Shown here piece by piece: positions 15,542 through 55,254 of a DNA stretch of 64,000 bases. A program made the position numbers and the translations under genes. The notes under the pieces are model-generated. The model was given only the letters and a program-made list of their open reading frames with translations. It ran no database searches and had not been told where the DNA came from. Source of the stretch: a bacterium (lineage in GTDB: Bacteria > Patescibacteriota > Minisyncoccia > Phycocordibacterales > UBA1550); contig JAUSES010000029.1 in NCBI GenBank assembly GCA_030649835.1, positions 4,130 through 68,129 on the forward strand, in the 5' to 3' direction. Every line of letters begins with the position of its first letter. The stretch's first letter is position 1.

Positions 15542-16255
15542 CTATTTCACAAGTGCCAAGGTGAGTGCGACGATTGCTGCTGTTTCGGCGCGGAGGATTT
15601 GGGGGCCGGTGGTAACAATGGGGATTTTGTGTGAGTGTAAAAACGCTATTTCCTCATCTGTGAAACCTCCTTCGGGGCCGATGAACAGCGAAACGGGTGA
15701 GACTGTGTGCTTCGTGAAATACTCTCGCGCGGATGTTTCTCCACGTGGGTCAAACACGATAAAGTTTTTGTGGGGGATATCTTCCGTTTTTATAATTTCT
15801 AAAATCTCTGGCACCGTTGTGCGCCCAGACTGTTCTGATGCTTCACGCACTATCTTTTGCGCGCGTTCATAGTTCACTCCCTTCTTTTCACTTCGGTCTG
15901 CTTGCACGGGCACAATGCGCGAGGCACCAAGCTCGGTTGCTTTTTCCAACACCATTTCAAAATTATCCTTTTTAATAAGTGCTAGATACAAAGTAACTTC
16001 ACGAAGTGATGAAGGAATGTGTTTCTTTTCCAAAACTTTAAGTGTTGCGAGACTTTTAGACAGTGAAACAAATTCACACAAGGCCTCATCCCCTTTCCCA
16101 TCAAAAAGAACAGCCTTGTCGCACGCCTCCATGCGAAGCACATTCCGCCATTGATTAAGGAGACCCTTGTCCACTAGATTAAACTCAGCGCCCTCAGGCG
16201 GAAGCTCTTTCTTCGGAAAATCCTTATCGTCCACAAAAAATCTATGTAGTTTCAT
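15542..16255 (-). CDS. rsmE: 16S rRNA (uracil1498-N3)-methyltransferase RsmE
   Basis: The RsmE C-terminal motif FIGPEGGFTDEE is present. Confidence 0.8.
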   Translation of the reverse strand: MKLHRFFVDDKDFPKKELPPEGAEFNLVDKGLLNQWRNVLRMEACDKAVLFDGKGDEALCEFVSLSKSLATLKVLEKKHIPSSLREVTLYLALIKKDNFEMVLEKATELGASRIVPVQADRSEKKGVNYERAQKIVREASEQSGRTTVPEILEIIKTEDIPHKNFIVFDPRGETSAREYFTKHTVSPVSLFIGPEGGFTDEEIAFLHSHKIPIVTTGPQILRAETAAIVALTLALVK

Positions 16256-16381
16256 CCCGTTAGAAGTAGGAAATTATTAAAAATTTCCGTAGTTAACTAA
16301 TAAATTGTCAGCCTAAATACATTTATCATAAATTCCCCCTAAACGCCACCCCTGAACCATATGACTTCTAACGGGATTCAT
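16253..16381. repeat. family-1 TIR element copy A (CATCCCGTTAGAAGT … ACTTCTAACGGGATTCAT), with an internal ggaaat…atttcc hairpin
   Basis: The left terminus CAT is the rsmE start codon. Copies also lie at 29577..29703, ~38914..39043 and 55077..55254. Confidence 0.7.
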
Positions 16382-16391
16382 GTTGTTAAAA

Positions 16392-16670
16392 TTATTCAAA
16401 CAAAGAGGCGTGTGTGCCAATGTTTACCAAAAGCAATACTAACACGTCTTTTTCTTTGCGATACAGAAGTAAAATATCATTTTGAACATGACATTCTCGT
16501 ATTCCAACGAATTCACCTTTCAACTCATGATCTTTATATTGAGCAGGGATTTTTTCGCTTTTCTTAAGCAACAAAACTACTTCATCAAGCTTTTTAATAT
16601 GGAAATCCTTGTGCTGCTCAACACGCTTAAGTGACTTTCTGTATTGATTCGATGAAATAACGTGGTACAT
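16392..16670 (-). CDS. type II toxin, YafQ/RelE family
   Basis: YKDHELKGEFVGIRECHVQNDILLLYR matches YafQ-like toxins. Confidence 0.7.
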   Translation of the reverse strand: MYHVISSNQYRKSLKRVEQHKDFHIKKLDEVVLLLKKSEKIPAQYKDHELKGEFVGIRECHVQNDILLLYRKEKDVLVLLLVNIGTHASLFE

Positions 16671-16672
16671 AT

Positions 16673-16960
16673 TTATTTACCAAGAATTTCACGGTGCATC
16701 TGTTCAACATCGTCATACGCTTTAATCTTTCCACTTTTATAATCCCTAAGGGTTTTTTCTGCAATACGTACCAACTCTCGTTTCTTTTCCTCAGGCCAAT
16801 AGTCGGCACTCATTACCGGAAAAGGAATGGACTTTGTATTTACTACTTGTGCAAGAAAAAGCTTCATTCCTGTCGACATATCCAAACCCATAGACTTAAA
16901 GATTTTACTCGCATCACTTTTCATCTTCTTGTCCACCCTAAATTGTAGTGTTGTGGTCAT
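16673..16960 (-). CDS. type II antitoxin, RelB/DinJ family
   Basis: TTLQFRVDKKMKSDASKIFKSMGLDMSTGMKLFLAQVV is a DinJ-like RHH. It lies 3 nt upstream of the toxin. Confidence 0.7.
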   Translation of the reverse strand: MTTTLQFRVDKKMKSDASKIFKSMGLDMSTGMKLFLAQVVNTKSIPFPVMSADYWPEEKKRELVRIAEKTLRDYKSGKIKAYDDVEQMHREILGK

Positions 16961-17094
16961 AAATACAGTATACACCCGCAATCTTCCTTGTCAATACATT
17001 GTCACTACATCAAAATAGTCTATCAGGTCAGCGCAGAAAACAAAAACTCGGCCTGCCGTGAAGCAGACCGAGGTATTGAAAATGAATGCAAAAA

Positions 17095-17601
17095 TTAAAT
17101 AGTGCGACGAAAAAAAACGAAATTTGTATCTGCGCTCCATTCACCGTCATAATGATAATTATTGGGAAGATTCTTCCTTAAATCACTCCTTTTGTAATAC
17201 TCTTGAATTCGTTTATATTCGTTCAAGACAACATTCACCTCCTCTATTAAAGCAACTTCGAATCCACCTTTATCTGAGAGACTGCTACATTGTAAGAACA
17301 TTTGTAGTCCGCGACGACTTTGCGGAAATAGCTCATAGCCAAGCTCTGAAATACGAGCATATGTGTTTCTAAGTTTTGCGCCATTTCCAAAGCCAAGATT
17401 ACGATTAGACGCTATGACTAACTCAGCCCCCGTCTCCTTGCTGTACGTCCTTTCATAATGTCCAACATCCTTAATGGAAGTGGCGGCCTGACTCAAAGCA
17501 GTCAACACCATATTTCTGAGGCATTCTTTTCTGTCTTTTGCCAGCCTATGATTAACACCAGGGGTAATTGTACTAAATGTTGAAAAACGTGAATTGTTCA
17601 T
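17095..17601 (-). CDS. hypothetical protein (168 aa, no recognisable domain)
   Basis: ORF only. Confidence 0.35.
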   Translation of the reverse strand: MNNSRFSTFSTITPGVNHRLAKDRKECLRNMVLTALSQAATSIKDVGHYERTYSKETGAELVIASNRNLGFGNGAKLRNTYARISELGYELFPQSRRGLQMFLQCSSLSDKGGFEVALIEEVNVVLNEYKRIQEYYKRSDLRKNLPNNYHYDGEWSADTNFVFFRRTI

Positions 17602-17740
17602 CGTGCTTCTCCCAAAGTTGATAAAACGGTTAAATTTTGCCCCTCAATCCTCAAAGGACTACTGAAACAAATATAGCAAGTATTTAGGCTTTTGTCAAGT
17701 CAAAATTTGCAACAATTTAGAATTGTGGTACGATACCCAC

Positions 17741-18337
17741 ATGTCCTACTTAATCCCAACTGTTATTGAAAAGTCGCCACAAGGCGAACGTGCGTATGAT
17801 ATTTACTCGCGCCTACTCAAGGAGCGCATCATTTTCCTTTCGGGCGCTATTGATGATGACACGGCAAACATCACCATCGCTCAGCTTCTTTTTCTTGAAT
17901 CTGAAGATCCAAAAAAAGATATTTCTTTATACATCAACTCCCCCGGTGGCTCCGTGACTGCAGGAATGGCGCTCTACGACACCATGCAACACGTGAAGCC
18001 AGATGTTTCTACTATTTGTGTTGGAATGGCAGCATCAATGGGTGCAGTGCTTCTCTCTGCGGGCGCAAAGGGTAAGCGTTTCATACTTCCCAATGCTGAG
18101 GTAATGATTCACCAGCCACTCGGGGGCACCGAGGGGCAGGCGTCCGACATCGCCATCACTGCAAAACATATTTTGAAAATAAAGGAGAATTTGAATAAAA
18201 TACTTTCAAAAAACACCGGCAAGCCTCTCGCACAAATAGAAAAAGACACCGACCGCGACTTTTTCATGTCCGCCGAAGAGGCTAAAAAGTATGGCATCAT
18301 CGACGAGATTTACAAACCCAAGAATCCGCGAAGCTAG
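17741..18337 (+). CDS. clpP: ATP-dependent Clp protease proteolytic subunit
   Basis: [11 protein letters not shown] (Ser), MIHQP (His) and the Asp of the catalytic triad are present. Confidence 0.9.
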
Positions 18338-18403
18338 CCTGCAAAAAAACATCCCCCGCCTTTTTGAAAAAGGCGGGGGATGTTTTTTTGCAGGCTAGCT
18401 TCG
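18331..18403. terminator. long perfect palindrome acting as a bidirectional terminator between clpP (+) and the AAA ATPase gene (-)
   Basis: gaagctagcctgcaaaaaaacatcccccgcc tttttgaaaaa ggcgggggatgtttttttgcaggctagcttc. Confidence 0.6.
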
Positions 18404-18414
18404 GCCAAATATCA

Positions 18415-19566
18415 CTAAAGCAGGTACTCCGGCCATGTATCTTTATTGATCACTTTAATACCTAAATTCTTAAATCTCTTTGCAAAAGCTTCTCTAGTTA
18501 ATGCATTAACCTTACTATCTTGCCATTTGCATTCAAAAGCATTGATATATTCACTTTTTCTTTCAACTATATCCACCTCACTCCCGCTATAGGTGCGCCA
18601 AAAACACATATCGACTGATTCATTTTCATGACGATATTTCTTGAGTCGTTCAATAAATACAAAATTTTCCCACAGTTGTCCGATGTCAGTGCGATTTTCA
18701 ATTTGTGCAAAGTTACTTACCACTGCATTACGAATACCGAGATCAACAAAATAGTATCGTTTATTTTTCCCAATTTCGTTTCTTTCGTTCTCAGTATTTA
18801 CGCTTGTTGAAGATGCAATAATGAATGATTTTTCTAAAATACCAATATATTTTTCTACTGTAGTTCGCGACAGCTGTACCCTTGTTGCAATCTCGTTAAT
18901 AGACACATCGTGCCCAATTTGGAGTGCCAACATTTTAAGCACACTTCTAATTCCTTCATGATTTCTTACCCCCTCAAATTCAAGAATGTCTTTATACAAA
19001 TACGCTTGCGTGATATCACGCATCATTATTTCTTTTAGCTTCGTATCATTTTCTTTGCGTATTGCTGGATAATTACCGTATACCAAAACATCGTGAACGA
19101 CCGAAAGCGTCATCACTCGCCCCAAAGTGAGGTCTATCTCGTGCATATCAAGAGGATAGAGATTGAGATAGCTTGCCCTTCCCGTGAGTGGCTCCGTGGT
19201 ATGGTGCGCGAGTCCGAAAGCAGAAGAACCTGTCACTATAAAAATGGCATCCTTATATGTATCCACCAAGAACTTTAAGGTAAGTCCCGGCTCTTCCAAA
19301 TACTGAGCCTCATCTATGATCACCAATTTTGCATTATTGAGGATCGGCGACACTCTCCCTATTGTTCGTGAGGAAAGCTCCTTTGCTGCAATCCGGTCAT
19401 CCCCCTGTAGCCAAACCTTTTTGCCAGAATAGGCGTCAAAATAATCTCGCAGTAGTGTTGTTTTTCCTGCCTGACGCGGTCCATAGACAACAAGGACTTT
19501 TCCTTCTCGCGCAAATTTTTCAATGTTCTTAGATTGTCTGCGAATGAATTTCATTACTGAAAGCAT
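18415..19566 (-). CDS. AAA+ ATPase with a C-terminal DUF4143-like domain (ATP-binding protein)
   Basis: Walker A VVYGPRQAGKTTLL, Walker B VIIDEAQ; the architecture is typical of AAA_14/DUF4143 proteins. Confidence 0.65.
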   Translation of the reverse strand: MLSVMKFIRRQSKNIEKFAREGKVLVVYGPRQAGKTTLLRDYFDAYSGKKVWLQGDDRIAAKELSSRTIGRVSPILNNAKLVIIDEAQYLEEPGLTLKFLVDTYKDAIFIVTGSSAFGLAHHTTEPLTGRASYLNLYPLDMHEIDLTLGRVMTLSVVHDVLVYGNYPAIRKENDTKLKEIMMRDITQAYLYKDILEFEGVRNHEGIRSVLKMLALQIGHDVSINEIATRVQLSRTTVEKYIGILEKSFIIASSTSVNTENERNEIGKNKRYYFVDLGIRNAVVSNFAQIENRTDIGQLWENFVFIERLKKYRHENESVDMCFWRTYSGSEVDIVERKSEYINAFECKWQDSKVNALTREAFAKRFKNLGIKVINKDTWPEYLL

Positions 19567-19818
19567 AGCATACTAGCAATTTTAAAGCAAATATCGCAAA
19601 CATAGTTACATAATTAAAGCAAATATCGCTTTTTTTGAGTGTCTTCACCTCCTGCCCACAGTCTCAAACACTTGCTTGTGCTCAGCACAAGCGGTATTAT
19701 AAAAATGTACCCAATTTTGTAATTTATATTGACACTTTTATTAAGGGGCGATAACCACCCGCAGATTTGGAGAAAACCGCATAAACATTAAGGATTTCGA
19801 GAACTGGCGGGATTATAT

Positions 19819-21351: not shown

Positions 21352-21373
21352 GACAGAAATAAAATTGTGTATT

Positions 21374-21414
21374 AGTAAGCCCCTGATTTTGCTTCGCAAA
21401 ATCAGGGGCTTACT
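21374..21414 (+). terminator. rho-independent terminator after rny
   Basis: agtaagcccctgattttgc ttcg caaaatcaggggcttact. Confidence 0.6.
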
Positions 21415-21461
21415 AAATTAATAGTTCAAAAAATAAACCCCCAAAAGTCCAAGTCCCCAAT

Positions 21462-21497
21462 TTCGCAATAAACAGCTATAGCTGTTTATTGCGCGAA
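21462..21497. promoter_or_regulatory. ~35-bp palindrome P1 (ttcgcaataaacagctatagctgtttattgcgcgaa) just upstream of the PaaX-like gene
   Basis: Perfect dyad. A near-identical palindrome P2 lies at 22141..22190, just downstream of the same gene. Confidence 0.6.
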
Positions 21498-21505
21498 TCA
21501 ATTAA

Positions 21506-22111
21506 GTGGTATATACTATCAAAATGTCCGCAAGTAAACTCCAAAGGCATGCGCGCCAAAAGCCCCGTCGTAGTGCCTTGCAGCAAAAAATTCTTCTTCT
21601 CTTGTCCGCTGGCCTCGCGCTCGGGCTTACCCGTAACCCAAATCAATACTTTCGCATTGTACGAGAGGCAGGAAAAGAGTTGGACAAAATAAACCGCGGC
21701 TCTCTTAATCGCGCGATCCGCTCTCTGTATGAATCAAAGCTTGTTTCCACAAAAGACAACCATGATGGCACACTGACACTAGTGTTGTCTAAAGAAGGGA
21801 AGCAGCTTGCGTTGACGTACAACATTAATAACATGGAGATAAAAAAGCCGACACAATGGGACGGAAAGTGGCGGATTGTGATGTTTGATGTGCCAGAGCC
21901 ACTCAAAAAAGTGCGCGACTCGCTTCGTATGCATTTTAAAAATATGGGATTTTATGAATTTCAGAAATCTGTGTTTGTGCATCCGTATCCGTGCGCAAAG
22001 GAGATAGAGTATATTGTGGAGTTTTATGAGGCGCAAAAATATATTCGATTTATTGTTGCGACAGATATTGATAACGCACTGGAGCTGAAGAAGAATTTCC
22101 ATCTTCTTTGA
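21506..22111 (+). CDS. PaaX-like transcriptional regulator domain protein (wHTH plus PaaX-C-like domain)
   Basis: WDGKWRIVMFDVPEPLKKVRDSLRMHFKNMGFYEFQKSVFVHP resembles the PaaX C-terminal domain (Cas2/VapD-like fold). Confidence 0.45.
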   Translation: MVYTIKMSASKLQRHARQKPRRSALQQKILLLLSAGLALGLTRNPNQYFRIVREAGKELDKINRGSLNRAIRSLYESKLVSTKDNHDGTLTLVLSKEGKQLALTYNINNMEIKKPTQWDGKWRIVMFDVPEPLKKVRDSLRMHFKNMGFYEFQKSVFVHPYPCAKEIEYIVEFYEAQKYIRFIVATDIDNALELKKNFHLL

Positions 22112-23552: not shown

Positions 23553-23612
23553 GTTCAAAAAAAAGAAAACTCAGGCTTTTAAAAAGCCTGAGTTTTCTTT
23601 TTTTTTGAACCT
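23553..23612. terminator. bidirectional palindromic terminator between hup (+) and the methyltransferase gene (-)
   Basis: gttcaaaaaaaagaaaactcaggcttttt aa aaagcctgagttttctttttttttgaac. Confidence 0.6.
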
Positions 23613-26727: not shown

Positions 26728-27594
26728 TTAGCCCACAATTGACCTCACTTTTGTCACAATCTCATCCAGTGTAAAGTTTGCCTTTACCATAAAATCTTTT
26801 GCTCCGAGTGTCATTGCCTTGTCAAAATCTTCCTTCTGTCCAAGGTTACTCAATATAACAACAGGGATATCAGCTGTCTTTGGTTCATTCTTAATGCGCT
26901 TTAGTATTTCAAAACCATCCACTCCTGGCAAAATAAGGTCACACAAAATTATTTTTGGCTTCCGTTCTGACAAAATGGTAAATGCTGCCTGTGCATCTAT
27001 CGCATTTTGCACATCAAAACCTTCACCTGATAGTTTTCTGACAAGGAGTTCGCGTAAAAATTTATCATCCTCAATAACTAGTATAAATATTTTTTCGCCC
27101 GTAGAAGGGGCGGGTGTTTCGCTTATTTTTTTTTCATCGTTCATAATTTCTTTAGTTACTCCTGTGCTTTTTATATTTTGTGCCCTAATTCCCCATTCTC
27201 CAGGTGGCGCCATCCCTCCACCTGAGAGCACGTGTTCAACTTTTTCTAAAACTTCATTTGGATCAAATACCGCCTTAATTAAAAATTCTCGCGCACCAAG
27301 CTCCTGCGCACGCTTTATTTCTAGTGGCTGGCCAGAGTTTGAAATAATTATAACAGGAATCGTTCTAAGCTCTGCGTCGGCAAAAAGGTCCTCAAGAACC
27401 TCAATCCCCCCTTTGCGAGGCATTAAAATATCCAAAAGAACACAGTCTGGTCGTTTAGCACGGATCTTTTCCATTGCGATAACCCCATCCTCGGCCTTAT
27501 CCACTATGTAGCCATTTTTTTCAAGCTTCTCCGAGAGTACATCTCGCAAGATAGCATCGTCCTCAACAATTATTATTCTTTTTTTCTCAGGCAT
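26728..27594 (-). CDS. response regulator with two receiver (REC) domains and no output domain
   Basis: Two copies of the D-D-K receiver pattern (IIVEDD…LLDILMP… and ILVIEDD…LCDLILP…). Confidence 0.8.
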   Translation of the reverse strand: MPEKKRIIIVEDDAILRDVLSEKLEKNGYIVDKAEDGVIAMEKIRAKRPDCVLLDILMPRKGGIEVLEDLFADAELRTIPVIIISNSGQPLEIKRAQELGAREFLIKAVFDPNEVLEKVEHVLSGGGMAPPGEWGIRAQNIKSTGVTKEIMNDEKKISETPAPSTGEKIFILVIEDDKFLRELLVRKLSGEGFDVQNAIDAQAAFTILSERKPKIILCDLILPGVDGFEILKRIKNEPKTADIPVVILSNLGQKEDFDKAMTLGAKDFMVKANFTLDEIVTKVRSIVG

Positions 27595-27611: not shown

Positions 27612-29579
27612 TTATGAAATCGTCTTGTTTGCCAGCGAAACATCATTGTGTCCACTTCCGGCCCCAACGATGTTCACAGATTCTCCATTATTTGATACAT
27701 CCTCTTTTGGTATTAGCTCTGTAATGGTTGGTATCAATACGGTAAAAGCTGTTCCCTTGCCTTCAACAGTATCAACCCATATCTGCCCGCCGTGGCGCAC
27801 TACAATACTCTTTACAATAAAGAGTCCTAGTCCTGAACCATCTGTCTGCAAATGAATCACATTTGCAGCACGGAAAAACTTAGAAAATAGTTTTGGAAGG
27901 TCTGTTTTAGGAATACCTACACCCGTATCACTAATTTTTATCTCTATATAATCACCATGTTTACTAACTGAGATGGTGACCCTCCCCCTTGGGAACGTGT
28001 ACTTCATAGCATTATCAACAATGTTCTGGAGCGCTATGAGAAGTTTTTCTGGATCAAAAACAAAGTCAGGAATTGTGCCAGCATGATTTTCAAGCCGTAC
28101 CTCAATATTTCGTTCTTTTGAAGGAAGGACGGTGCTTTCCATAAGCATACTAAGAAGTCTCATAAAGTCATTTTTCCCAAAATCATACCCAAACTTACTA
28201 TTCTCTATACGTGAAACATTAAGTAAGTCATTAACGAGCTGGATCATTTTCTCGTTCGTTTCATACCCACGCCTTAACATACCTTTTTGGGTCTCAGAGA
28301 CTTCACCAAGATCTCCATCAAGTAACAGCTTAAGTACCCATTTCACTCCCGAAAGCGGTGTGCGTAGCTGATGTGCAGCCACAGAGATAAAATCTGATTT
28401 CAGTTTATCAAATTCTCTTAGGCTACCTACCATGGAGTTAAAAACATCTCCGAATTGCCCAATCTCATCGTTAGATGTATGCTCTACAGTTTGATTAAAA
28501 TCACCCCCCGCTATTTTTTTAGCAACCAAAGAGTATTTACGTATAGGACCAACGACCTCCGTTTCCAAAATAACAGCGAGTACAACAACGAGAATTACCG
28601 TAAACACTAAACCAATCCACAACATGCGAAGTTTAAGTTGGTTCACCCGAACCTTATAGACATCTTTAAATACCTGAATTTCGGTTAGTCCTGCTATTTG
28701 TTTTTTCCCGTCTGTTCCAACAAAAAATACTGGATTTAATCGCACAATAACATCTACGGTTTTCCCGTTTGGCGTTATGTATGTACGATCAATTTCAAAC
28801 GGGGCCTTTAGTTCGCCACTCATTACACCAAGACGAGCTTTTTTATACTCAGGAGGATCGTCCTTAGTTTCGTTTGGGTTGTTTTGAGTACTTGCTATAA
28901 TATTTAATTTTTCATCAAAAATGATAAAGTTATTAAAAAAATAGAAGTCTTTTACGCTATTTACAATTCGCTGAAGTACGTCAACACTAATTTTTCTAGT
29001 AACAATAAGTGAGCGCATATTTTGGTCAACAAATCTCGTAACAACCTGAAGAACCTTTTTCGCTTCTTCAATATCTGACAAATTTTTTGAGCGCGACGAG
29101 ACAGAAATATCAATAACATTTACCATTTCTGATGAAGTATCGTCGCCTTTAAAAAACACAGGAACATGTCTCTCAAATTCGTAAAAAGTCCCCCTGTCTT
29201 TTTCTGCACTTATTCCCACTCTTTCAACTTCTATCTTTTTCAAGATTTCCCTGTCCTCAAAACTAATCTCCTTTCCTATCAGCTCGTGGTCTTTTGCAGC
29301 AACATAGTATCCGCGCGCATCATTAACATTAATATATTTCAGCTCAGAGCCTGCTCCAATTTTATCTATTGTTGTTTGTAGAGTATCTTGCTGTATATAA
29401 TTTTGAATAAAGGTACGTTCTATCTGATCCCCCAAAATATTTATCACCCCTTGTGAGTCTTCTAAAACTTGCTGTCGTAGGTTTACCGAAACCATATCTA
29501 CGATAACCCAAAAAACTATCGCGAGAATAAACGTAGTTACCGTAACCAAAACAAGATTTACTTTTGTGCCAAGCTTCAT
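27612..29579 (-). CDS. sensor histidine kinase (N-terminal TM, extracytoplasmic domain, HAMP, HisKA, HATPase_c)
   Basis: H-box SVAAHQLRTPL and G-boxes DTGVGIP / GSGLGL. Confidence 0.85.
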   Translation of the reverse strand: MKLGTKVNLVLVTVTTFILAIVFWVIVDMVSVNLRQQVLEDSQGVINILGDQIERTFIQNYIQQDTLQTTIDKIGAGSELKYINVNDARGYYVAAKDHELIGKEISFEDREILKKIEVERVGISAEKDRGTFYEFERHVPVFFKGDDTSSEMVNVIDISVSSRSKNLSDIEEAKKVLQVVTRFVDQNMRSLIVTRKISVDVLQRIVNSVKDFYFFNNFIIFDEKLNIIASTQNNPNETKDDPPEYKKARLGVMSGELKAPFEIDRTYITPNGKTVDVIVRLNPVFFVGTDGKKQIAGLTEIQVFKDVYKVRVNQLKLRMLWIGLVFTVILVVVLAVILETEVVGPIRKYSLVAKKIAGGDFNQTVEHTSNDEIGQFGDVFNSMVGSLREFDKLKSDFISVAAHQLRTPLSGVKWVLKLLLDGDLGEVSETQKGMLRRGYETNEKMIQLVNDLLNVSRIENSKFGYDFGKNDFMRLLSMLMESTVLPSKERNIEVRLENHAGTIPDFVFDPEKLLIALQNIVDNAMKYTFPRGRVTISVSKHGDYIEIKISDTGVGIPKTDLPKLFSKFFRAANVIHLQTDGSGLGLFIVKSIVVRHGGQIWVDTVEGKGTAFTVLIPTITELIPKEDVSNNGESVNIVGAGSGHNDVSLANKTIS

Positions 29580-29703
29580 CCCGTTAGAGGTAGGAAACGC
29601 TGTGCGTTTCCGTAGTTATTTAATAAATAGTAATACATCAATGTTTTATTATTATAATCCCGCTCTCTCATTATACAAACCTGATGACCTCTAACGGGAT
29701 TCA
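29577..29703. repeat. family-1 TIR element copy B (CATCCCGTTAGAGGT … ACCTCTAACGGGATTCAT)
   Basis: The left terminus CAT is the histidine-kinase start codon. Internal hairpin ggaaacgctgtgcgtttcc. Confidence 0.7.
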
Positions 29704-31974: not shown

Positions 31975-32320
31975 AGTCGGGGTGCCGTGCCCAAGGCATG
32001 AATCAGCTGATTCAGAATCGAACTCGGCCTAATCTAAATTTCTTATGGAAATTTCCGCGGAAGTGTTTGGACACTTCCGGTTAAAGCTTTAGTCGGGGTG
32101 CCGAGGAATCCCCGCCTGCCATCGCCTGACTGATCCTTACGAAGCGATTGGCAGTGGCGGGCAGGGAACTCGGCCTATATTCTAGTGAGTGAGCGAAAAG
32201 TAAATACCAATTTACTTTTCCGAGCGAACGACGAATATATTGTACCCAGTTATATCTAAATTTCTAAAGGAAATTTCCGCGAAAGCATCTATATGCTTTC
32301 GGTTAAAGAATGTGTCGGGG
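31975..32320. repeat. two degenerate tRNA-Pro 3'-fragment copies (gtcggggtgccg…aactcggcc), each interrupted by an insertion of ~27 or ~60 nt and followed by a conserved ~60-nt hairpin segment
   Basis: Compared against the intact tRNA at 32315..32385; shared downstream block atctaaatttctNaNggaaatttccgcg…ttNcggttaaag. Confidence 0.55.
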
Positions 32321-32385
32321 TGCCGAGAATCGAACTCGGCCTATCTGCTCCCAAAGCAGACGTACTACCGATATACTACACCCCG
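32315..32385 (-). tRNA. tRNA-Pro (anticodon GGG)
   Basis: C1:G72 and A73 as in bacterial tRNA-Pro, anticodon loop TTGGGAG, T-loop TTCGATT. Confidence 0.75.
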
Positions 32386-32399
32386 ACACATTCTTCAAC

Positions 32400-32495
32400 C
32401 CCACGCAGACGTACTACCGATATACTACACCCCGACTAAAGCTTCAACCCCAAAGCAGACGTACTACCGATATATAACTGCATACAATATATCCT
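32400..32495. repeat. two additional partial copies of the tRNA-Pro 5' half (gcagacgtactaccgatata…) in tandem upstream of the tRNA
   Basis: Period ~45-49 bp with three copies including the tRNA itself. Confidence 0.55.
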
Positions 32496-32647
32496 GCGTT
32501 CGCTCGAAAATACAAACTCCATGTTTGTATTTTACTCACTCACTTGGATATACTACACCCCGTTACACGTGAAACGTAGGAGAATATTAGCACACAAGAG
32601 GCAAATTACGAAATTTGAACACTTGGAACCAGAACATGGGGTAGGTT

Positions 32648-34511: not shown

Positions 34512-34527
34512 GCCCTATCCGCACAAT
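34512..34527. repeat. direct repeat of the tRNA-Gly(GCC) 3' end (ccctatccgcacaat), ~195 bp distal to the tRNA
   Basis: Exact 15-nt repeat of 34318..34332. The intervening segment starts with tgcggatagag (tRNA 5'-like) and contains ggagaatcgaaagccgg, shared with the element next to tRNA-Gly(TCC). Confidence 0.55.
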
Positions 34528-34579
34528 AAATATAAAATAGTCAGCCTCTCTTGAGAGGCTGACTATTTTATATTTATTG

Positions 34580-34651
34580 TGCCCACGCCAGGATTCGAAC
34601 CTGGAATAACGGTTTCGAAGACCGTTGTGATATCCATTTCACTACGAGGGC
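34580..34651 (-). tRNA. tRNA-Arg (anticodon TCG)
   Basis: Acceptor with one T·T mismatch, anticodon loop CTTCGAA, T-loop TTCGAAT. Bidirectional terminator hairpin at 34541..34566. Confidence 0.7.
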
Positions 34652-38660: not shown

Positions 38661-38790
38661 TTAATCTCTAGCGTGATCGGGCAGTGGTCCGAACCATAGA
38701 AATCGCTCATGATTGATGCCTGTTTCACGCGGGGGAGGAGGTCGGGGGAAATGAAAAAGTAGTCAATGCGCCAGCCGATAATATCTACTT
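38661..38790 (-). pseudogene. truncated duplicate of the 3' end of xth (~42 codons, ~85% identical to 40164..40290)
   Basis: Minus-strand translation is …IIGWRIDYFFISPDLLPRVKQASIMSDFYGSDHCPITLEIK*, compared with the Xth C-terminus …VGWRIDYFFISPDLLPHVKQATIMTDFLGSDHCPITLVM*. Confidence 0.75.
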
Positions 38791-38913: not shown

Positions 38914-39043
38914 ATGAATCCCGTTAGAGGTCGCTCAGTTTATTAAACAGCACCTGCGGGACTTTATGATAAAAGGTTAGATTTATTTACTATGCGATAA
39001 TTAACTACGGAAATGCATGGCATTTCCTACCTCTAACGGGATG
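38914..39043. repeat. family-1 TIR element copy C in inverse orientation (ATGAATCCCGTTAGAGGT … TTTCCTACCTCTAACGGGATG)
   Basis: The right terminus ATG is the start codon of the Phd-like antitoxin. Coordinates are ±2 nt. Confidence 0.65.
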
Positions 39044-39292
39044 AAAACAGCTACCAAAAACATTGTGGGGCTCAAGGAATTGCGAGAAAATATGGACTCG
39101 TATATTTCTGGTGTTCAAAAAGGTAAGTCTTTTATTGTGGTTCGACGTTCAGAGCCAATTTTTCGCCTTTCTCCTGTTGATATTTGGGGAGACGAGGGCG
39201 TGTGGGAAACTGCTGTCGATTTCACCAAAATAAAAAAGGGAGGTGTGCCACTTGCTGATGTAATTGCTTCACTTAAGCGCCGCAATGCATAA
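39041..39292 (+). CDS. type II antitoxin, Phd/YefM-like
   Basis: IVGLKELRENMDSYISGVQKGKSFIVVRRSEPIFRL. Overlaps the toxin start as ATGCATAA. Confidence 0.6.
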   Translation: MKTATKNIVGLKELRENMDSYISGVQKGKSFIVVRRSEPIFRLSPVDIWGDEGVWETAVDFTKIKKGGVPLADVIASLKRRNA

Positions 39293-40163: not shown

Positions 40164-40928
40164 CTACATCACTAGCGTGATTGGGCAGTGGTCGGAGCCG
40201 AGGAAGTCGGTCATGATGGTGGCTTGTTTCACGTGGGGGAGGAGGTCGGGGGAGATGAAGAAATAGTCAATGCGCCAGCCGACGTTGCGCGCGCGGGCGC
40301 CGGTTTTCATATCCCAGTACGTGTATGCATCTTTTTTGTTTGGATTGAGGTGCCGATAAATATCTACATAGCCATGGTAAATGAGCTCATCTATCCATGC
40401 GCGCTCCTCGGGGAGGAAGCCGGTGTTCTTTTCATTTTCTTTTGGGCGGGCGAGGTCCACTGCCTCATGCGCGGTATTCACATCTCCGCAAATAATAATC
40501 TTGTGCCCTTTTTTGCGGAGGCTCTCGGTAAATTCCAAAAAATGATCGTAAAAATCGAGTTTATATTTAAGTCGCACGGGTCCACCACCACCATTGGGGA
40601 AGTAACAATTCAAAAGGACAAAGTCTTGAAAGTAAAGGACAAGGAGTCTCCCTTCTTGATCCATGTCCCTTATCCCCATTCCTTCTTCTACTTTTTCTGG
40701 CTTCACTTTTGTATACACCGCGACCCCGCTGTAGCCCTTGCGCATCTTTGAATGTGAAAAATATGAAAAATAGCCTTTTGGATTGCGCACTTCTTCGGGA
40801 AGTTGCTCTGCCTCTACTTTTGTTTCCTGTAGACACAAAATATCCGCATCCCTTTTTATAATATCGGCAAAATTCCCCTTCTTGTGTATCGCGCGCAATC
40901 CATTTACGTTCCAGGATATAAGTTTCAT
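40164..40928 (-). CDS. xth: exodeoxyribonuclease III
   Basis: AP-endonuclease family sequence (…SWNVNGLRA…LCLQETK…DHCPITL). Confidence 0.9.
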   Translation of the reverse strand: MKLISWNVNGLRAIHKKGNFADIIKRDADILCLQETKVEAEQLPEEVRNPKGYFSYFSHSKMRKGYSGVAVYTKVKPEKVEEGMGIRDMDQEGRLLVLYFQDFVLLNCYFPNGGGGPVRLKYKLDFYDHFLEFTESLRKKGHKIIICGDVNTAHEAVDLARPKENEKNTGFLPEERAWIDELIYHGYVDIYRHLNPNKKDAYTYWDMKTGARARNVGWRIDYFFISPDLLPHVKQATIMTDFLGSDHCPITLVM

Positions 40929-44329: not shown

Positions 44330-44445
44330 TTTGGGACAGGAAGAACCGAGAGACAAGTGAACGCCCAATCGCTACGCGATTGGGCGTTCACTTGTCTCTA
44401 TTCCTTGTTCCCACCCGTCCCAAACGTTCCCCCTGTCCACGCGTA
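44330..44445. repeat. family-T palindromic element copy 2 (gggacagg…agagacaagtgaacgcccaatcgctacgcgattgggcgttcacttgtctct…gtcccaaacgttcc…cctgtcc)
   Basis: Hairpin with a GCTACGCG apex; likely terminator of the transporter gene. Confidence 0.6.
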
Positions 44446-50751: not shown

Positions 50752-50900
50752 GGGAACGAGGGGGACACACGGGACAGGAAGAACGAAAAATATACGAAAC
50801 AACGCGCTGTCGCGTAGCGACTGCGCGCTTCTTCCCCGTGTGGGGTTCCCCTTGTGTGCCCCTGTTCTTCTTGTCCCAAATGTTTCCCCCCCCCCGCCCC
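50752..50900. repeat. family-T palindromic element copy 3 (gggacaggaagaac…cgcgctgtcgcgtagcgactgcgcg…gttcttcttgtcccaaatgtttccccccccc)
   Basis: Outer IR gggacaggaagaac/gttcttcttgtccc, a GCGTAGCG apex hairpin, and a terminal C9GC5 tract. Confidence 0.6.
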
Positions 50901-51974
50901 CTAAAACGGATTCTTCGCTCCACGCACTTCAAAGTGCAAATGTGAACCACTAGATTTTCCTGTATTCCCCACCTCGCCAATAAATTGCCCCTTGTCCACG
51001 CGTCCACCCACTGCGGTAAATACAGTGCTCAAATGTCCATACAAAGTTTGTGTACCGTTTGGATGTTCAATCACAATATAGTTGCCATAGCCACCCCCAC
51101 ACGTTCGTCCACAAGCGCCTGTTTTAAACTTGCTTACAATCACAATACCTTCCGCCGAGGCATACACTGGAGTCCCCCTCGGTGCGCCATAGTCCACACC
51201 ATTGTATCCATGAATCCCCTGTGTCTTGTGTCCCAAAGGAACTGGGTGAGCATAGTATCCATTATATGCAGGATATGAAGCAATAGTACGAGAGCGACTT
51301 CCACTTGTGGTGCTTCCTGATGTTGTTGGCACTACTACCTCAGCTCCATTTGGCACAATGACAATATCTCCCACAGAAAGTTTTTCTGTCGCAGTCATGT
51401 CGTTAAATTCAAGAATTTCTGCCATATCTCCTTTGTATTTCTTTGCAATACTCTGAAGTGTGTCTCCTTTTTGTACCGTGTGCTGAACGCCGTCAATTGG
51501 TAAAACAACAAGGTGCTGACCGTCACGAAGCGTAGCCCCTCGAGAAAGGTCGTTTGCCCAAAGAATAGTGTTGACTGACACCCCAAACATTTTCGCCACC
51601 TGAGCTATCGTGTCCCCAGAACGAACAACGTAGAGACTTACTTTACCCTGATGATCTCCTTGCTCCACGTCAGCGAGGGTTCCGGATGGTCCTGTTTCTG
51701 AAAGGAGGGCGCTGTCGTCCACAACAGTAATATCGCCACCTCCTTTTGCGGGATTTGGGTCAAAATTAACCGCCCCTTCCAAAAGGCTAATTGTCTGCGA
51801 ATTCTGCGCCTCAGAACGCACCGCCAAAACAGCTGTATTATTTGACTTCTTTTCAGATAAATAGAAAAAACCCCTAGCCTCTACTACGGCAAGGGGGGCG
51901 AGGAGCCCAAAAATAACAGACAAAAGAAAAACTAAGGTGCTCAAAAACCCGCCGAAAGTCGCGCCCTTTTGCAT
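50901..51974 (-). CDS. M23-family peptidoglycan endopeptidase with two LysM domains
   Basis: LysM copies (YVVRSGDTIAQVA…, HTVQKGDTLQSIA…) and the M23 HxH motif (GSHLHFEV). Confidence 0.8.
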   Translation of the reverse strand: MQKGATFGGFLSTLVFLLSVIFGLLAPLAVVEARGFFYLSEKKSNNTAVLAVRSEAQNSQTISLLEGAVNFDPNPAKGGGDITVVDDSALLSETGPSGTLADVEQGDHQGKVSLYVVRSGDTIAQVAKMFGVSVNTILWANDLSRGATLRDGQHLVVLPIDGVQHTVQKGDTLQSIAKKYKGDMAEILEFNDMTATEKLSVGDIVIVPNGAEVVVPTTSGSTTSGSRSRTIASYPAYNGYYAHPVPLGHKTQGIHGYNGVDYGAPRGTPVYASAEGIVIVSKFKTGACGRTCGGGYGNYIVIEHPNGTQTLYGHLSTVFTAVGGRVDKGQFIGEVGNTGKSSGSHLHFEVRGAKNPF

Positions 51975-52217
51975 GGTTACCTCTGCTTTTATTCCAGCTT
52001 TCCTCGAGATGGAAAGACCAAAAATAGTCCACCACGACTTTTTTCGGGTAAACCTTGAAAAATATGAGTATTTCGCCCGGACTGCTTTCTTTTGCCCTCG
52101 TCCGAGGTCCTGTAATTTTGTAGAAATAGGTCTATATAATAGGTGCCGTTCGGTCGTACGGTCAGGTCGGGAAAAGTCGTGTTTTCTGTGAACCTGGGGC
52201 CAATCCCCATGGTTAAG

Positions 52218-52403
52218 GGTCGGTCCAAGATTTAATGTCTAGCAAAAACTTTAAAATTTACTGCGAAAATCATGAATCTCGAGGAGGCATATATCATATG
52301 CTGACAAGAGATTGATGATTTGCAGCGGAAATTTTAGGGTTTTGGCAGACAAACAAGCGCAAGCTGTATCTTTATGCCCTGTGTTTAAATCTTGGACCGA
52401 CCC
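52218..52403. repeat. long-range inverted repeat (gggtcggtccaagatttaa … ttaaatcttggaccgaccc) enclosing ~145 nt within a 580-bp intergenic region
   Basis: 18-19-bp perfect arms. Confidence 0.6.
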
Positions 52404-52484
52404 TGTTTAACGATAGCATAAATCATTACTGAAAAGGAGGGCTCTGGGGATATGTTGTGGACAACTTTTGGGTCGAAAATCCCT

Positions 52485-52512
52485 TGACTTTTCTATATAT
52501 TCTTGGCATAAT
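52485..52512 (+). promoter_or_regulatory. sigma-70-type promoter (TTGACT, 16-nt spacer, CATAAT) upstream of the 836-aa gene
   Basis: Consensus-like hexamers ~40 nt upstream of ATG 52554. Confidence 0.5.
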
Positions 52513-52553
52513 TCTATGTACATAAACACAAGCTTGTGTAATAATTCAAACTA

Positions 52554-55064
52554 ATGAACAACTCAAAAGAAACATTTGAATTTAAACCTCATCTGCAAGA
52601 AATTTCTGATGTAGAAGTCATCGGCACCCCTTCAACATTGGACTCAACAAACCCAAATAAGCCTGCGGAAGCAGCGAGCTACGGCATGGGTGCCCACTTT
52701 GAAAAGGCAGGAATCACAGCAGCAAGCTTTCCTGCTGAAAAACCAGAGGCGCCTGTCGCCTCTGCGGCAAACGAGACTTTTGAAAAAGGCACGGCCGGGA
52801 CAGTGAACGAGAATAAGGCTCCTCGCGGTGGAAGAGGGACAAAAGGGGCGCCAGATGAAATCAAAGAAGCTATTGAGGAGGCACAGAAAATAGAAGTCAA
52901 AATTGACCACGATTTTGCAAAACTAAAGAAGCACAAGGATGATCTCGTTCGTACGCTCGCCAAACTTCACCTTCAAGAAACTGAGGCCCTGAGGCGTGGG
53001 GTTTCTCTTGATCTTCAAAAAAAACTACGAGGCAAGGTAGATAGAGCTCAAGCAAGCCTTGATAAAATAAATGGCATTCTTCCAAAGACAACAGAAAATG
53101 GTGCGCCGAGCGAACATCAGGCTATTTTAAAAATAGTTGAAGATTATAGAAAAAATAAAGATGTCCTTAAAAAACTTTATTCAAAAATAGGAAAGGCAGA
53201 AAACGACCTTAAGAAAAAGCCGGGGGACGGCAGGATACAAGGAGAGGAAAATCGCGCTCAAGCAGAAAAGGCAATCGTGGAAACAAACCTTGCAAAAATT
53301 GCAGCCGATGCTGAGCAACTACTTGCAAAAACAGAGGCTCCATCGCTTTCAGAAGAGGCGGGGCTTTCATACACACACGCACAAGCTGTTGCCGACCGCA
53401 AGGAATGGGAAGAGCGTCACAAAAATGCGCAGGCAGATGCCGTGCTTGAATCAGTGCCAGCAGAGAATGAAATTGAGTTTGAGTCACAAGCAGTAGAAAA
53501 ATCAGCACAAGAAAACTACGCGGAGGGGTGGGAGCGTATTTGGGGTAAAAAAGAAACAGAAAAAAACAATTCAGAAATTCCCACCCTTACCGAGGTGGTT
53601 GAGGAGCCAATTGCAAAATTTGAATTGTCCGAAAGAGCGCGAAGTGGTCTCAACCCTGAACAACTAGAACTTTTTGAGAAGGTGCAGGAAGGAATTTCTA
53701 ATGCGGAAAAATCCGCCACAGAGCAAGTAAAAAAAGCAGGGATGCCAGAAAAAATGTTGGGTCTTTTACGCAAAGGTGGGGAGTCATATTCAAAGTTGCC
53801 ACTAAAAACAAAACTTCTTGTTTCTATAGCACTCTTTGGAGTAGCGTGGGCAGCAGGCGGAACCATTGCGAGCGTAGCAATAGGAGGTTCTGCTATCCAG
53901 CGCGCCCTCGGTGGTATGGCAACATTTGTCGCAGCAGAAGGGGCATTGAAAGCAAGTGCGGAAAAGGGTGGGGGTGGGCGTGGAAAATTTGAAAAATCTC
54001 GACACACCGCGGAAGCTCTGCTTGCCGGGTTCCTCGTTGGAGGTGGGGCACTCGGTCTTGCTATCAATAATGCTTTGGCTGAAGGACTCCCTTCTCATGA
54101 AACAGCAACCGCGCCTGTGGAAACTGATGCTGAAAAAATTGAAAAGTTGCGATCAGAAATAATGCCTAAAGCAAATCTTGCAGCGCTTGATACTGCACCA
54201 AATACTGACTACACTGCTGTCGCAGAGGCAGGGGATTCTCGTTGGACTCTCGTGGGCGAGGCCCTTGCCAAGGGCCCTTACGAAAAGGAGTTCAGTCTTC
54301 TTCCTCAAGGTCAGCAGGAATACGTCATTGATGCAATCAAGGATAAACTTACTGCGGGAATGACCGCGGAACAAGCGAATATGCTGAACGTAGGAGATGA
54401 AATTGATTTCAAAGAAATTTTTGCAGACAAGGATTTCATAGAGAAAACGTTTGCTGATGCGCAAAACCTCAGCACGCCGGAGCTCGAAAATATTGCGAAT
54501 TACAATCCTGATGAAGTTGCAGATGCGCCCACGGTTAAGGAAATTTTTGAACCTAAAGTAATGGATTTTTCTCCCCACGGTGCGCTTGAGGGGTCATCTT
54601 CTCCAGTACCAACAATTCCATCAGAAATTCTTCCGGGAGATCCTCCAAAAATTATAGAAAACTTCTCTCTTGAAAACCTTTCTACTCCAGATGCTCCCAC
54701 GCTAACTGAAAATCTAGCTTCAATATCTCCTATTTTTACGCCGAGCGATCCACAGATTCTTATTTACGCAAAAGAGGTAACAGACAATAATATACAATCA
54801 GTTTTTGGTAAGGTGGGTGGGTTTCTTGGATTTGGTTCTTCAGACGGGCAAGAAATATTTAAAAACTTTGCCGACAAGCCGGTTGACCAATTTATTGGAA
54901 CGAAGGCTCCGTCAGTACTTACTGTGGATGAAGGAAAAATGAAAGAACTAATTGAAAAATCAGTTGAGCAGACGCATGTCAAATCAATGCCTGGAGAAAA
55001 GGTTGTGGATTATTTAAACCGCTCTGCAGCAATCAACATTGAAAGGTTCACAAAAAACGGTTAA
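52554..55064 (+). CDS. large coiled-coil protein (836 aa) with central Gly/Ala-rich TM segments
   Basis: ORF. The N-terminal ~400 aa are K/E-rich helical. TM-like segments LLVSIALFGVAWAAGG… and LLAGFLVGGGALGLAI. Confidence 0.5.
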   Translation: MNNSKETFEFKPHLQEISDVEVIGTPSTLDSTNPNKPAEAASYGMGAHFEKAGITAASFPAEKPEAPVASAANETFEKGTAGTVNENKAPRGGRGTKGAPDEIKEAIEEAQKIEVKIDHDFAKLKKHKDDLVRTLAKLHLQETEALRRGVSLDLQKKLRGKVDRAQASLDKINGILPKTTENGAPSEHQAILKIVEDYRKNKDVLKKLYSKIGKAENDLKKKPGDGRIQGEENRAQAEKAIVETNLAKIAADAEQLLAKTEAPSLSEEAGLSYTHAQAVADRKEWEERHKNAQADAVLESVPAENEIEFESQAVEKSAQENYAEGWERIWGKKETEKNNSEIPTLTEVVEEPIAKFELSERARSGLNPEQLELFEKVQEGISNAEKSATEQVKKAGMPEKMLGLLRKGGESYSKLPLKTKLLVSIALFGVAWAAGGTIASVAIGGSAIQRALGGMATFVAAEGALKASAEKGGGGRGKFEKSRHTAEALLAGFLVGGGALGLAINNALAEGLPSHETATAPVETDAEKIEKLRSEIMPKANLAALDTAPNTDYTAVAEAGDSRWTLVGEALAKGPYEKEFSLLPQGQQEYVIDAIKDKLTAGMTAEQANMLNVGDEIDFKEIFADKDFIEKTFADAQNLSTPELENIANYNPDEVADAPTVKEIFEPKVMDFSPHGALEGSSSPVPTIPSEILPGDPPKIIENFSLENLSTPDAPTLTENLASISPIFTPSDPQILIYAKEVTDNNIQSVFGKVGGFLGFGSSDGQEIFKNFADKPVDQFIGTKAPSVLTVDEGKMKELIEKSVEQTHVKSMPGEKVVDYLNRSAAINIERFTKNG

Positions 55065-55076
55065 TATTACACAAAC

Positions 55077-55254
55077 ATGAATCCCGTTAGAGATGAAAGC
55101 GTTATGTTTTTGTCACCAATAGGATATACTGAAGCTATTACTATTAACAGATTGATATAATAAGGATACGGAAACTTGTCCCGTTAGAAGCCGCGAGAGA
55201 ATCGCAACGCTGAGTTGCTTCTAACGGGATAAATTTCCTATCTCTAACGGGATG
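55077..55254. repeat. family-1 TIR element copy D (ATGAATCCCGTTAGAGAT … TTTCCTATCTCTAACGGGATG) with a nested inner copy of the arms (cccgttagaag…cttctaacggg)
   Basis: The right terminus ATG (55252) is the start codon of the downstream gene. Confidence 0.7.

Follow-up and report, generated by a model that had tools for sequence, protein, structure and literature searches.

Start-codon repeats in a Patescibacteria genome as probable deletion derivatives of a small mobile element encoding a GIY-YIG nuclease

The window analyzed here is a stretch of 64,000 nucleotides (64 kb) from a Patescibacteriota bacterium (assembly GCA_030649835.1, contig JAUSES010000029.1, positions 4,130 to 68,129 of the forward strand). 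It contains four copies of a short repeat, and every copy ends on the initiation codon of a gene. The locus thereby raises the question of what these repeats are, where they come from and why they sit on start codons. The four repeats are very probably internally deleted, non-autonomous derivatives of a selfish element of ~278 bp, resembling MITEs (miniature inverted-repeat transposable elements). The ~278-bp element encodes only a GIY-YIG nuclease of the UPF0213/YhbQ/Slx1 type.

The four copies (A to D, Table 1) were confirmed by reading the sites and by searching for the arm motif. They carry 13-bp terminal inverted repeats (arms of 13-14 bp) and a subterminal hairpin. The motif CCCGTTAGAGG occurs 11 times in the window at no more than one mismatch, and 10 of these 11 occurrences are arms of the four copies, the nested pair in copy D included. 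Polarity relative to the downstream gene is identical in all four, with copies A and B on the minus strand. On the gene strand the layout reads 5'-ATGAA-T-CCCGTTAGARRT ... TAACTAC-GGAAA-N-TTTCC-TAYYTCTAACGGG-A-TGAA(gene), and ATGAA forms a direct repeat at both copy ends, outside the inverted repeat. The copies are 121-171 bp long, four in 64 kb, and retain only decayed remnants of an open reading frame (ORF). A search of the window with nhmmer, using a hidden Markov model built from relatives, recovered exactly these four copies and no degenerate or decayed ones. The original prediction of a MITE-like repeat bounded by terminal inverted repeats is thus borne out by the arms, the duplication, the relatives and a longer coding form with the same ends. 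The internal GGAAA...TTTCC hairpin is present as it had been read from the sequence, and the second pair of arms noticed within copy D belongs to a 51-bp copy in the hairpin loop. Alignment of the four copies outside the arms, on which that prediction depended, is limited to ~25 nt from the 5' end and ~60 nt from the 3' end, with a divergent interior between them. The nested mini-copy represents another subfamily, also present in the fetched loci L029 and L175 (L numbers denote loci fetched from other genomes), and shows no clear target duplication.

One terminus of each copy lies on the initiation codon of the adjoining gene in all four cases, and the ATGs next to the arms are true starts. 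The N-terminus of RsmE aligns with homologues at 100% coverage, so that the adjoining ATG is the true start. By its RsmE homologues the organism belongs to Patescibacteria of the Paceibacteria/Parcubacteria type. The window contains 221 ATGAA sites on both strands, of which ~13 are predicted gene starts. The location of four of four copies on start codons is therefore not due to chance. For the gene next to copy C, the longest-ORF rule places the start at 39017, inside the copy and 24 nt too early (MAFPTSNG-MKTATK...).

Related copies were sought in one genome per species with a pattern consisting of the hairpin and the 3' arm, requiring neither an ATG nor a 5' arm. The pattern was found at no fewer than 116 loci (at least that number) in many Patescibacteria lineages and in Omnitrophota. 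It needs an intact 3' end, and the resulting bias against decayed copies is lessened, not removed, by an arm-only search and the nhmmer scan of the window. The following counts are among the matches listed. An ATG follows directly after the 3' arm in 100 of 119 copies, and 99 of these 100 open ORFs of at least 50 codons or meet a contig end. The ORF after the arm-adjacent ATG has a median of 217 codons, against a median of 4 in control frames. The median distance to the upstream 5' arm is 118 bp. A direct repeat of 4-6 nt including the ATG flanks 83 copies and varies among copies (host starts ATGAA 66, ATGGA 17, ATGAG 4, ATGTA 2, ATGCA 2). Read in the standard register, the two flanks agree exactly in 70 of 97 copies; most others are shifted by a base or carry an upstream point change. 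Since the flanking repeat varies among copies yet agrees within a copy, it represents a target-site duplication that includes the start codon. Positions 1-13 are paired in at least 98% of 92 related copies, and up to three copies occur per 8-kb locus in other genomes. A few copies (L009, L026, L063, L097) have a reversed interior yet keep the duplicated start. No copy having both arms was found in viral contigs. Further miniature subfamilies with CCCGTTAGA arms occur at L029:3769-3886, L005:6160-6278, L046:5419-5535, L059:7178-7292 and L061:1289-1405. They have distinct GC-rich extended palindromic ends (GCCGCGGTCGC..., GCAGATCGCGATC...) and sit at start codons in either orientation.

Comparison of orthologous loci, proposed as a check in the original prediction, revealed presence-absence polymorphism. 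A flank-to-flank comparison of the fetched loci yielded three orthologous pairs of filled and empty sites, the empty partner having a single start codon. At the site where L105 reads ATGAG-T[element]ATGAGA, only one ATGAGA is present in L016, and at a second orthologous site L016 is filled and L105 empty. In the third pair L021 is filled and L092 empty, and L021 has since lost the old promoter and the upstream ATG copy. Copy A has empty counterparts as well. L204/L205 share the relB-yafQ-rsmE order of the window and an RsmE that is 70% identical, and they read yafQ-TAA-tc-ATGAAGTTACATAGATTTTTTGT where the window reads TAA-ttttaacaac-ATGAA-T[element]A-TGAAACTACATAGATTTTTTGT. The rsmE site is likewise empty in L201 and L202. 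Copy A is therefore a lineage-specific insertion into the rsmE start codon. A sequence search with the DUF5663 protein next to copy D brought up only a filled copy.

The source of the short copies emerged from arm pairs at any spacing. The arm-only search of the loci recovered 278-bp copies in L036 and L020 that have the same arms and one ORF, with 13-bp inverted repeats of the form T-CCCGTTAGAGAT ... ATCTCTAACGGG-A. The L036 ORF begins at the duplicated host ATG (ATG AAT CCC GTT AGA GAT ...), spans 95 codons and ends in ...CTA ACG GGA TGA, a stop that overlaps the rebuilt ATG of the host. The 95-aa protein matches the Pfam GIY-YIG domain (PF01541; E 2.5e-16, 60 bits, cut-off 22.6 bits) and, in the PDB, the UPF0213 protein BH0048 (E 5e-7); EF2693 (UPF0213) is also related. 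No transposase match was found for the ORF in Pfam or NCBIfam. An AlphaFold model (predicted local distance difference test, pLDDT, 85.8) has the beta-beta-alpha-beta-alpha-alpha order of the GIY-YIG fold. Foldseek ranks UPF0213 1zg2 best, followed by Slx1 (7cq2/6sei/4xlg), ahead of I-TevI and UvrC. Slx1, YhbQ and YazA are held to be one family (PMC7017083). Positions Y14, Y25-T26-G27, R33, H39-N40, E59 and N85 are invariant or nearly so in 113 sequences. A protein search returned 2685 clusters, most of exactly 95 aa, running MNPVRD-xxx-M(F/Y)Y.Y...SGMGKRYLKNRLKRFLSLTG, that is from MNPVRD to FLSLTG. The arms are therefore the first and last codons of the nuclease gene. This gene of 86-95 aa is the only one of the element, and no ORF other than GIY-YIG was seen between arms in ~200 loci. 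The UPF0213/YhbQ family as a whole comprises 9214 cluster representatives at E <= 1e-3. Some nuclease ORFs lack a stop and are fused in frame to a host protein (P0265, of 600 aa, P0241, P0244, P0256 and P0257), the partner in P0265 having a pilin-like N-terminal segment. In more distant relatives the protein begins with MNPDS or MNTVR and terminates in FLTLSG, FLTLTV or YLTG, and these variant ends suggest sister subfamilies with variant arms.

Full-length copies come from other Patescibacteria genomes and from metagenomes, where a scan recovered 80 loci with 72 distinct full-length copies with arms. An ATG (50) or GTG (4) opening an ORF of at least 50 codons, or one truncated by a contig end, adjoins 54 of the 72. 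The triplet after the last nuclease codon (GG[A/G]) is TGA in all 54 start-codon copies. Duplications counted past the terminal base are mostly TGAA (36), with TGAG (4) and TGA (4). In the family as a whole they range from 3 to 5 bp, with a preference for TGAA over TGGA. The terminal bases covary (T..A 58, C..G 13, A..T 1). The C..G copies in L131, L156 and L157 have the upstream flank ATGAA/ATGAG and a host start that now reads GTGAA/GTGAG. The covarying termini and the GTG conversions imply an outermost base that is part of the element itself and a true duplication of ~4 bp (TGNN). They also imply that, of the rebuilt start codon, the first base alone comes from the element. The claim that the inverted repeat donates the ATG needs revision accordingly, as ATGNN is the duplicated host start and the element gives at most its first base (A, or G in C...G relatives). 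In L117, from a widespread groundwater organism, the duplication reads ATGAAT/ATGAAT and the next gene begins 4 nt before the nuclease stop.

The short form can be derived from the full-length element by a single deletion. The parent contains an internal inverted repeat, ACGGAAACGCTTTAA (LRKRLK codons) and TTAAAGCGTTTCC (NRLKRF codons), the latter directly before the 3' arm, which pairs codons ~31-36 with codons ~86-91. On a profile of 75 full-length copies (280 nt, nhmmer), short copies align at positions 1-100 and 258-280, never at 110-240. The motif TACGGAAAC lies ~88 nt from the 5' end in short and full-length forms alike. This collinearity and the shared motif position imply a deletion of ~157 nt between the halves of the internal repeat, and in the GGAAA...TTTCC hairpin of the short form these two halves are joined. 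MAFFT placed the short copies on the 3' part of the ORF, a placement rejected as the profile search and the TACGGAAAC position favor a single deletion. The remnant ORF of copy D (MNPVRDESVMF...) still matches the nuclease N-terminus. By their sequence, arms and hairpin are thus the remains of the coding ends and the internal inverted repeat of a GIY-YIG gene, which the original prediction had missed. Short and full-length copies share contigs in L036, L020, L107 and L175.

The junctions reveal how an insertion spares the gene it hits. The element inserts into start codons of genes, at sites of the A|TGAA kind, and duplicates ~4 bp. At the 5' junction the original ATG of the host is joined, often in frame, to the nuclease ORF, and with this fusion the nuclease can use the host promoter and start. 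At the 3' junction the last base of the element and the duplicated TGAA restore the host start codon, T...A ends giving ATG and C...G ends giving GTG. The TGA of the nuclease ORF overlaps the restored ATG (ATGA), the classic arrangement for translational coupling. The host gene survives because its start is rebuilt and the nuclease TGA overlaps the ATG. In copy B, the terminal TGA of a 42-codon remnant ORF still overlaps the ATG of the kinase gene.

Both the protein and the folding of the element appear to be under constraint. Codon-position entropies of 0.60/0.46/1.22 reveal purifying selection on the nuclease protein. Third-position entropy drops to 0.18 in the 3' arm, against 1.32 elsewhere, which in this alignment indicates an added constraint at the DNA level. 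Across 61 full-length copies, pairing reaches 99.4% in the arms and 96.3% in the internal repeat. Compensatory changes are evident, with six pairs of the internal repeat varying on both sides (e.g., CG 36, UA 16, AU 5). None of 500 shuffles reaches the observed covariation score, and slid controls drop to 29-51% pairing. Mismatches are G-T (G-U) in 21 and A-C in 18 cases, without bias, so that the constraint looks symmetric, at the level of DNA or of both strands, rather than specific to RNA.

Conserved arms at gene starts could alternatively reflect a module that regulates host genes, as a structured 5' leader or as a pair of operators, kept by a host factor that binds the arms or by a stem that hides the AUG, with mobility incidental or extinct. 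We regard this as very unlikely. The orthologous filled pair L004/L067 has perfectly conserved arms and hairpin with diverged interior and flanks, the spacing of the arms is tight (median 118 bp among the matches listed), and in the predicted RNA fold the arms pair with each other and their stem takes in the AU of the start codon, all of which such a module would explain. Descent from coding sequence accounts for the same features, though, and the host genes are functionally unrelated and lack the element in close relatives. The mismatches also give no sign specific to the RNA strand, and neither upstream ORFs nor their stop positions are conserved. Rfam gave no match at the gathering score, nor at E <= 1 for one short or one full-length copy. 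A described RNA family (riboswitch, leader, ribozyme or group I intron) was rejected on this result and on the lack of a G-U mismatch bias. A conserved leader peptide or coupling through an upstream ORF in short copies was rejected too, as the lengths and stop positions of these ORFs are scattered; only 10 of 82 such ORFs end on the host ATG or no more than 7 nt away from it.

The original prediction had also considered the repeat as a combined terminator, promoter and translation-initiation module. This is not upheld, as promoters lie outside the element, no terminator was predicted in the sense orientation of the window copies and no Rfam family was matched. A two-hexamer scan found no sense promoter inside the window copies. 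For A, B and D it placed promoter-like hexamers just ahead of the 5' ATG copy, and an internal module was rejected on this ground. The hexamers TTGGCA-18-AATAAT end 9 nt upstream of the 5' ATGAA in copy A, and TTGAAA-17-TAATAT end 9 nt upstream of 55077 in copy D. For copy B the scan calls TTAATA-17-TATATT just upstream of the 5' ATGAA, and TATACT is visible by eye 8 nt upstream. TATAAT-like boxes seen by eye within some copies have no conserved position. The host genes in the window thus probably still rely on their old promoter for transcription, which would make the element a structured 5' leader. Ribosomes reading the short remnant ORF from the upstream ATG would be expected to open the arm stem. 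The lack of a Shine-Dalgarno sequence before the adjacent genes, noted at first as a feature of the repeats, stands as an observation but is not specific to them. Judged by eye, most genes in the window lack one, so that its absence is a property of the organism and not of the element. By the same visual reading, a box resembling TATAAT or TATACT, in some cases with TG upstream of it, stands 6-9 nt ahead of the ATG in many genes of the window (e.g., at 60387, 46004, 9342 and 26728-27594), which suggests that leaderless mRNAs are the norm in this organism.

The nuclease itself may drive mobility and move short copies in trans, probably recognizing the folded or cruciform DNA of the element much as Slx1 recognizes branched DNA. 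Strand joining would then have to come from the host or from another activity. Several points weigh against this interpretation. GIY-YIG enzymes are hydrolytic nucleases, and to our knowledge strand joining or transfer by them is not known. A duplication of 3-5 bp beside inverted repeats is the classical signature of DDE transposases. The 64-kb window contains no GIY-YIG gene that could serve as a source of nuclease. An empty site for a full-length copy was not found among the fetched loci, the closest Ham1 relative (L206) differing in downstream synteny. About a quarter of the full-length copies, mostly with C...G ends, lie away from start codons, most of them next to TAA or TAG. Promoter use, coupling and leaderless starts are read from the geometry of the sequence. 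The signature of the ends could also be that of an ordinary MITE family moved by a conventional DDE-type transposase that recognizes the CCCGTTAGAG repeats, with the GIY-YIG gene as a passenger or a recruited host gene. The arm-only search, which revealed several subfamilies with common arms and unrelated interiors, fits such a scenario as well. We nevertheless consider it unlikely. The GIY-YIG gene is the sole ORF ever seen between the arms, and in thousands of protein clusters the nuclease begins and ends with the codons that make up the arms. As deletion products, the short copies align collinearly with the nuclease element, and a duplication that varies between 3 and 5 bp is unusual for a DDE enzyme.

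Why the copies sit on start codons is a separate question. We infer that start codons are picked by the insertion machinery rather than left over by selection. Survivorship in streamlined genomes is a serious alternative, and we give it a substantial though lesser chance. The enzyme would merely prefer TGAA-like sites, copies within genes would be lethal, copies in spacers would soon be deleted and copies on start codons would persist. Full-length copies on start codons would, in addition, get their nuclease expressed. The short target preference, which extends from TGAA and TGGA to TTAA, TTTA and TAAA, suits this explanation, as do copies that lie inside genes or other copies. In L020 an insertion at TTAA inside a gene forms an in-frame fusion with the rest of the gene (L020:1336-1700). 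In Omnitrophota, the constant GTTTA flanks mark copies that inserted into the TAT-TTA-AAA codons of another copy, as in L107, where the outer copy occupies the start of an efflux-pump gene. Selection also acts visibly on full-length copies. ATGGA starts occur in 17 of 97 short copies (among the matches listed) but in none of 54 full-length copies. With stops always trailing the arm, full-length copies are filtered for an immediate stop codon and short ones are not. The numbers argue for targeting all the same. Among the matches listed, well over 90% of the Patescibacteria-type copies are on starts, whereas the ~13 gene starts in the window stand against 221 ATGAA and 793 TGAA sites. The majority on start codons also holds in the less biased arm-only search, and MITEs of other bacteria abound in spacers. 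A preference for TGAA over TGGA alone cannot explain the near-exclusive location on start codons.

Comparison with known systems places the element between established classes. Free-standing GIY-YIG homing endonuclease genes (T4 Seg/Mob, I-TevI) likewise encode a lone nuclease between host genes, depend on host transcription and overlap the start of a neighbor. Homing endonucleases, however, have an added DNA-binding domain and one cognate target, spread by homologous repair and lack inverted repeats and target duplication. The element encodes a bare catalytic domain of 86 aa, structurally nearer to UPF0213/Slx1 than to I-TevI, and has inverted repeats, a duplication, many unrelated target genes and deletion derivatives. 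Slx1/UPF0213 proteins (E. coli YhbQ, B. subtilis YazA) are the best matches of the nuclease in sequence and structure. The analogy to Slx1 fits because Slx1 cuts branched DNA and the element folds into paired arms and an internal stem. Slx1 differs in having a zinc-finger domain, in its dependence on Slx4 and in being a repair enzyme. In the literature searched, no UPF0213 member was linked to mobility.

Correia elements (NEMIS) of Neisseria are similar in size (~100-150 bp) and also have terminal inverted repeats, a target duplication, a position near gene starts, co-transcription and a long stem of the arms in RNA or DNA. They have 26-bp arms, a TA duplication and sites in spacers, their parent transposase is not identified and they share no sequence similarity with the element described here. 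In the latter, the arms are the coding ends of a nuclease, the duplication holds the start codon and the site is the start codon itself. Membership in Correia/NEMIS, ERIC or REP families was rejected on the different arms, the TGAA-type duplication and the Patescibacteria and Omnitrophota hosts. IS200/IS605 elements and their PATE derivatives are likewise very small, recognize hairpins in folded DNA, have miniature derivatives and insert in an orientation-specific manner by a short target. They use an HUH (Y1) transposase and subterminal hairpins instead of terminal inverted repeats, make no target duplication and measure ~600-700 bp at the smallest. Rickettsia palindromic elements, inteins and translational-bypass 'byp' elements are selfish insertions that also spare gene function. 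Those remain in frame or are spliced or bypassed, in contrast to the regenerated start and ATGA overlap found here.

Other assignments were rejected on specific grounds. An insertion sequence of the DDE, HUH, serine or tyrosine type disagrees with the GIY-YIG gene as the only ORF between arms in ~200 loci and with the absence of a transposase match in Pfam and NCBIfam. An integron attC site would have the order RYYYAAC ... GTTRRRY, which is reversed here (GTTAGAG ... CTCTAAC) on both strands. IS200/IS605, piggyBac-like and Tn3-like ends were set aside too, either for the inverted repeats and duplication that the copies possess or for the register in which that duplication lies. Full-text searches with sequences, peptides and keywords found no published description of a comparable element; most subscription journals lie outside their coverage and a prior description is possible. 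One paper on Patescibacteria that names GIY-YIG merely lists it among transferred genes. The element combines traits of free-standing GIY-YIG selfish endonuclease genes with those of MITEs or insertion sequences and fits neither group, and this kind of mobile element appears to be undescribed.

The observations together raise the possibility of a new class of prokaryotic transposable element, a proposal that falls just short of being probable in our view. The sole protein of such an element would be a bare Slx1-like GIY-YIG nuclease of ~86 aa acting on the folded DNA of the element itself, with paired termini and an internal stem. Its size of ~278 bp would make it, as far as known, the smallest of the autonomous mobile elements. 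Its machinery would aim at start codons, fuse the nuclease to host initiation signals and rebuild the ATG or GTG from its own last base. The window copies would be miniatures mobilized in trans.

Table 1. Repeat copies in the 64-kb window, their parts and the genes whose start codons they occupy (window coordinates).
Feature	Position	Strand	Remarks
Copy A	16255..16376	-	122 nt including terminal T...A; between the stop of the yafQ toxin gene (16392) and the rsmE start
Copy A, 5' ATGAA	16377..16381	-	Original rsmE ATG; now opens a 22-codon remnant ORF (MNPVRSHM...)
Copy A, 3' duplication TGAA	16251..16254	-	Restores rsmE ATGAA with the terminal A of the element (16255)
Copy A, hairpin GGAAA...TTTCC	16269..16288		Subterminal; corresponds to fused halves of the internal inverted repeat of the parent
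rsmE (RNA methyltransferase)	15542..16255	-	Start codon is the copy A target
Copy B	29579..29699	-	121 nt; at the start of the sensor histidine kinase gene
Copy B, 5' ATGAA	29700..29704	-	
Copy B, hairpin GGAAACGC-TGT-GCGTTTCC	29593..29611		
Sensor histidine kinase (HAMP/HisKA/HATPase)	27612..29579	-	Copy B target
Copy C	38919..39041	+	123 nt; at the start of the 83-aa gene
Copy C, 5' ATGAA	38914-38918	+	Duplication
Copy C, 3' TGAA	39042-39045	+	Duplication
Copy C, hairpin GGAAATGC-ATG-GCATTTCC	39009..39027		Includes a spurious upstream in-frame ATG at 39017
83-aa gene	39041-39292	+	Copy C target
Copy D	55082..55252	+	171 nt; at the start of the DUF5663 gene
Copy D, 5' ATGAA	55077-55081	+	
Copy D, hairpin halves	55170-55174 and 55234-55238		
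Mini-copy nested in copy D	55179..55229	+	51 nt; other subfamily, arms CCCGTTAGAAGCCGCG...; in the hairpin loop
DUF5663 protein	55252..55584	+	Copy D target

The surroundings of the copies contain further features of interest. The 83-aa gene after copy C has no Pfam match, and its earlier label as a Phd-like protein was not confirmed. A 115-nt direct repeat of 85% identity (38664-38778 and 40168-40282) flanks a block of ~1.5 kb in which copy C lies together with two pairs of small genes. An exonuclease III-like gene (40164-40928) has the second repeat unit as its 3' end, and the repeat is consistent with a cassette insertion with target duplication. Directly downstream of rsmE, a 911-aa ORF (12782-15517, minus strand) resembles a fused restriction-modification methyltransferase-endonuclease of type IIG/IIL.

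The window also holds repeats of other kinds. Positions 1-4000 form an extended coding stretch that is highly repetitive, with a period of 51 nt (17 codons) and larger 300-nt repeats (families D1-D8), probably encoding one or several giant repeat-containing surface proteins. Perfect palindromes of unusual length, with 24-37-bp arms, directly follow genes at 18329-18403, 23557-23605, 34521-34582, 44349-44399, 55589-55652 and 58208-58271. Some palindromes belong to dispersed families, with CGCAATAAACAGCTATAGCTGTTTATTGCGCG at 21464, 22150 and 57838 and AAAATAAAGGACCGTCCTTTATTT at 9658, 58207 and 58248. The long palindromes may be terminators or further repeat families. Around the tRNA-Pro gene (32314-32385), the region 32030-32510 contains a 49-nt unit that includes the 5' half of the tRNA and occurs three times (32350-32497), besides a direct repeat of 74 nt (32032/32254) and an inverted repeat of 39 nt. 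Together they have the look of a scar left by integration or excision at a tRNA gene.

If the nuclease does mobilize the element, the GIY-YIG class would join the DDE, HUH, serine, tyrosine and Cas1 transposase chemistries, and the size of autonomous mobile DNA would have a new lower limit. Insertion into start codons with single-base precision, leaving the host gene intact, is an unusual parasitic strategy and a possible lead for tools that make precise N-terminal insertions. The element provides a candidate role for a branch of the large, uncharacterized UPF0213/YhbQ family. Genome annotation is affected as well. Thousands of 95-aa proteins called 'GIY-YIG family' or 'excinuclease ABC subunit C' are mobile cassettes, and gene starts beside the repeats are easily miscalled, as with the ATG at 39017. 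The copies on start codons also provide natural test cases for translation initiation on Patescibacteria mRNAs, which lack Shine-Dalgarno sequences and are probably leaderless.

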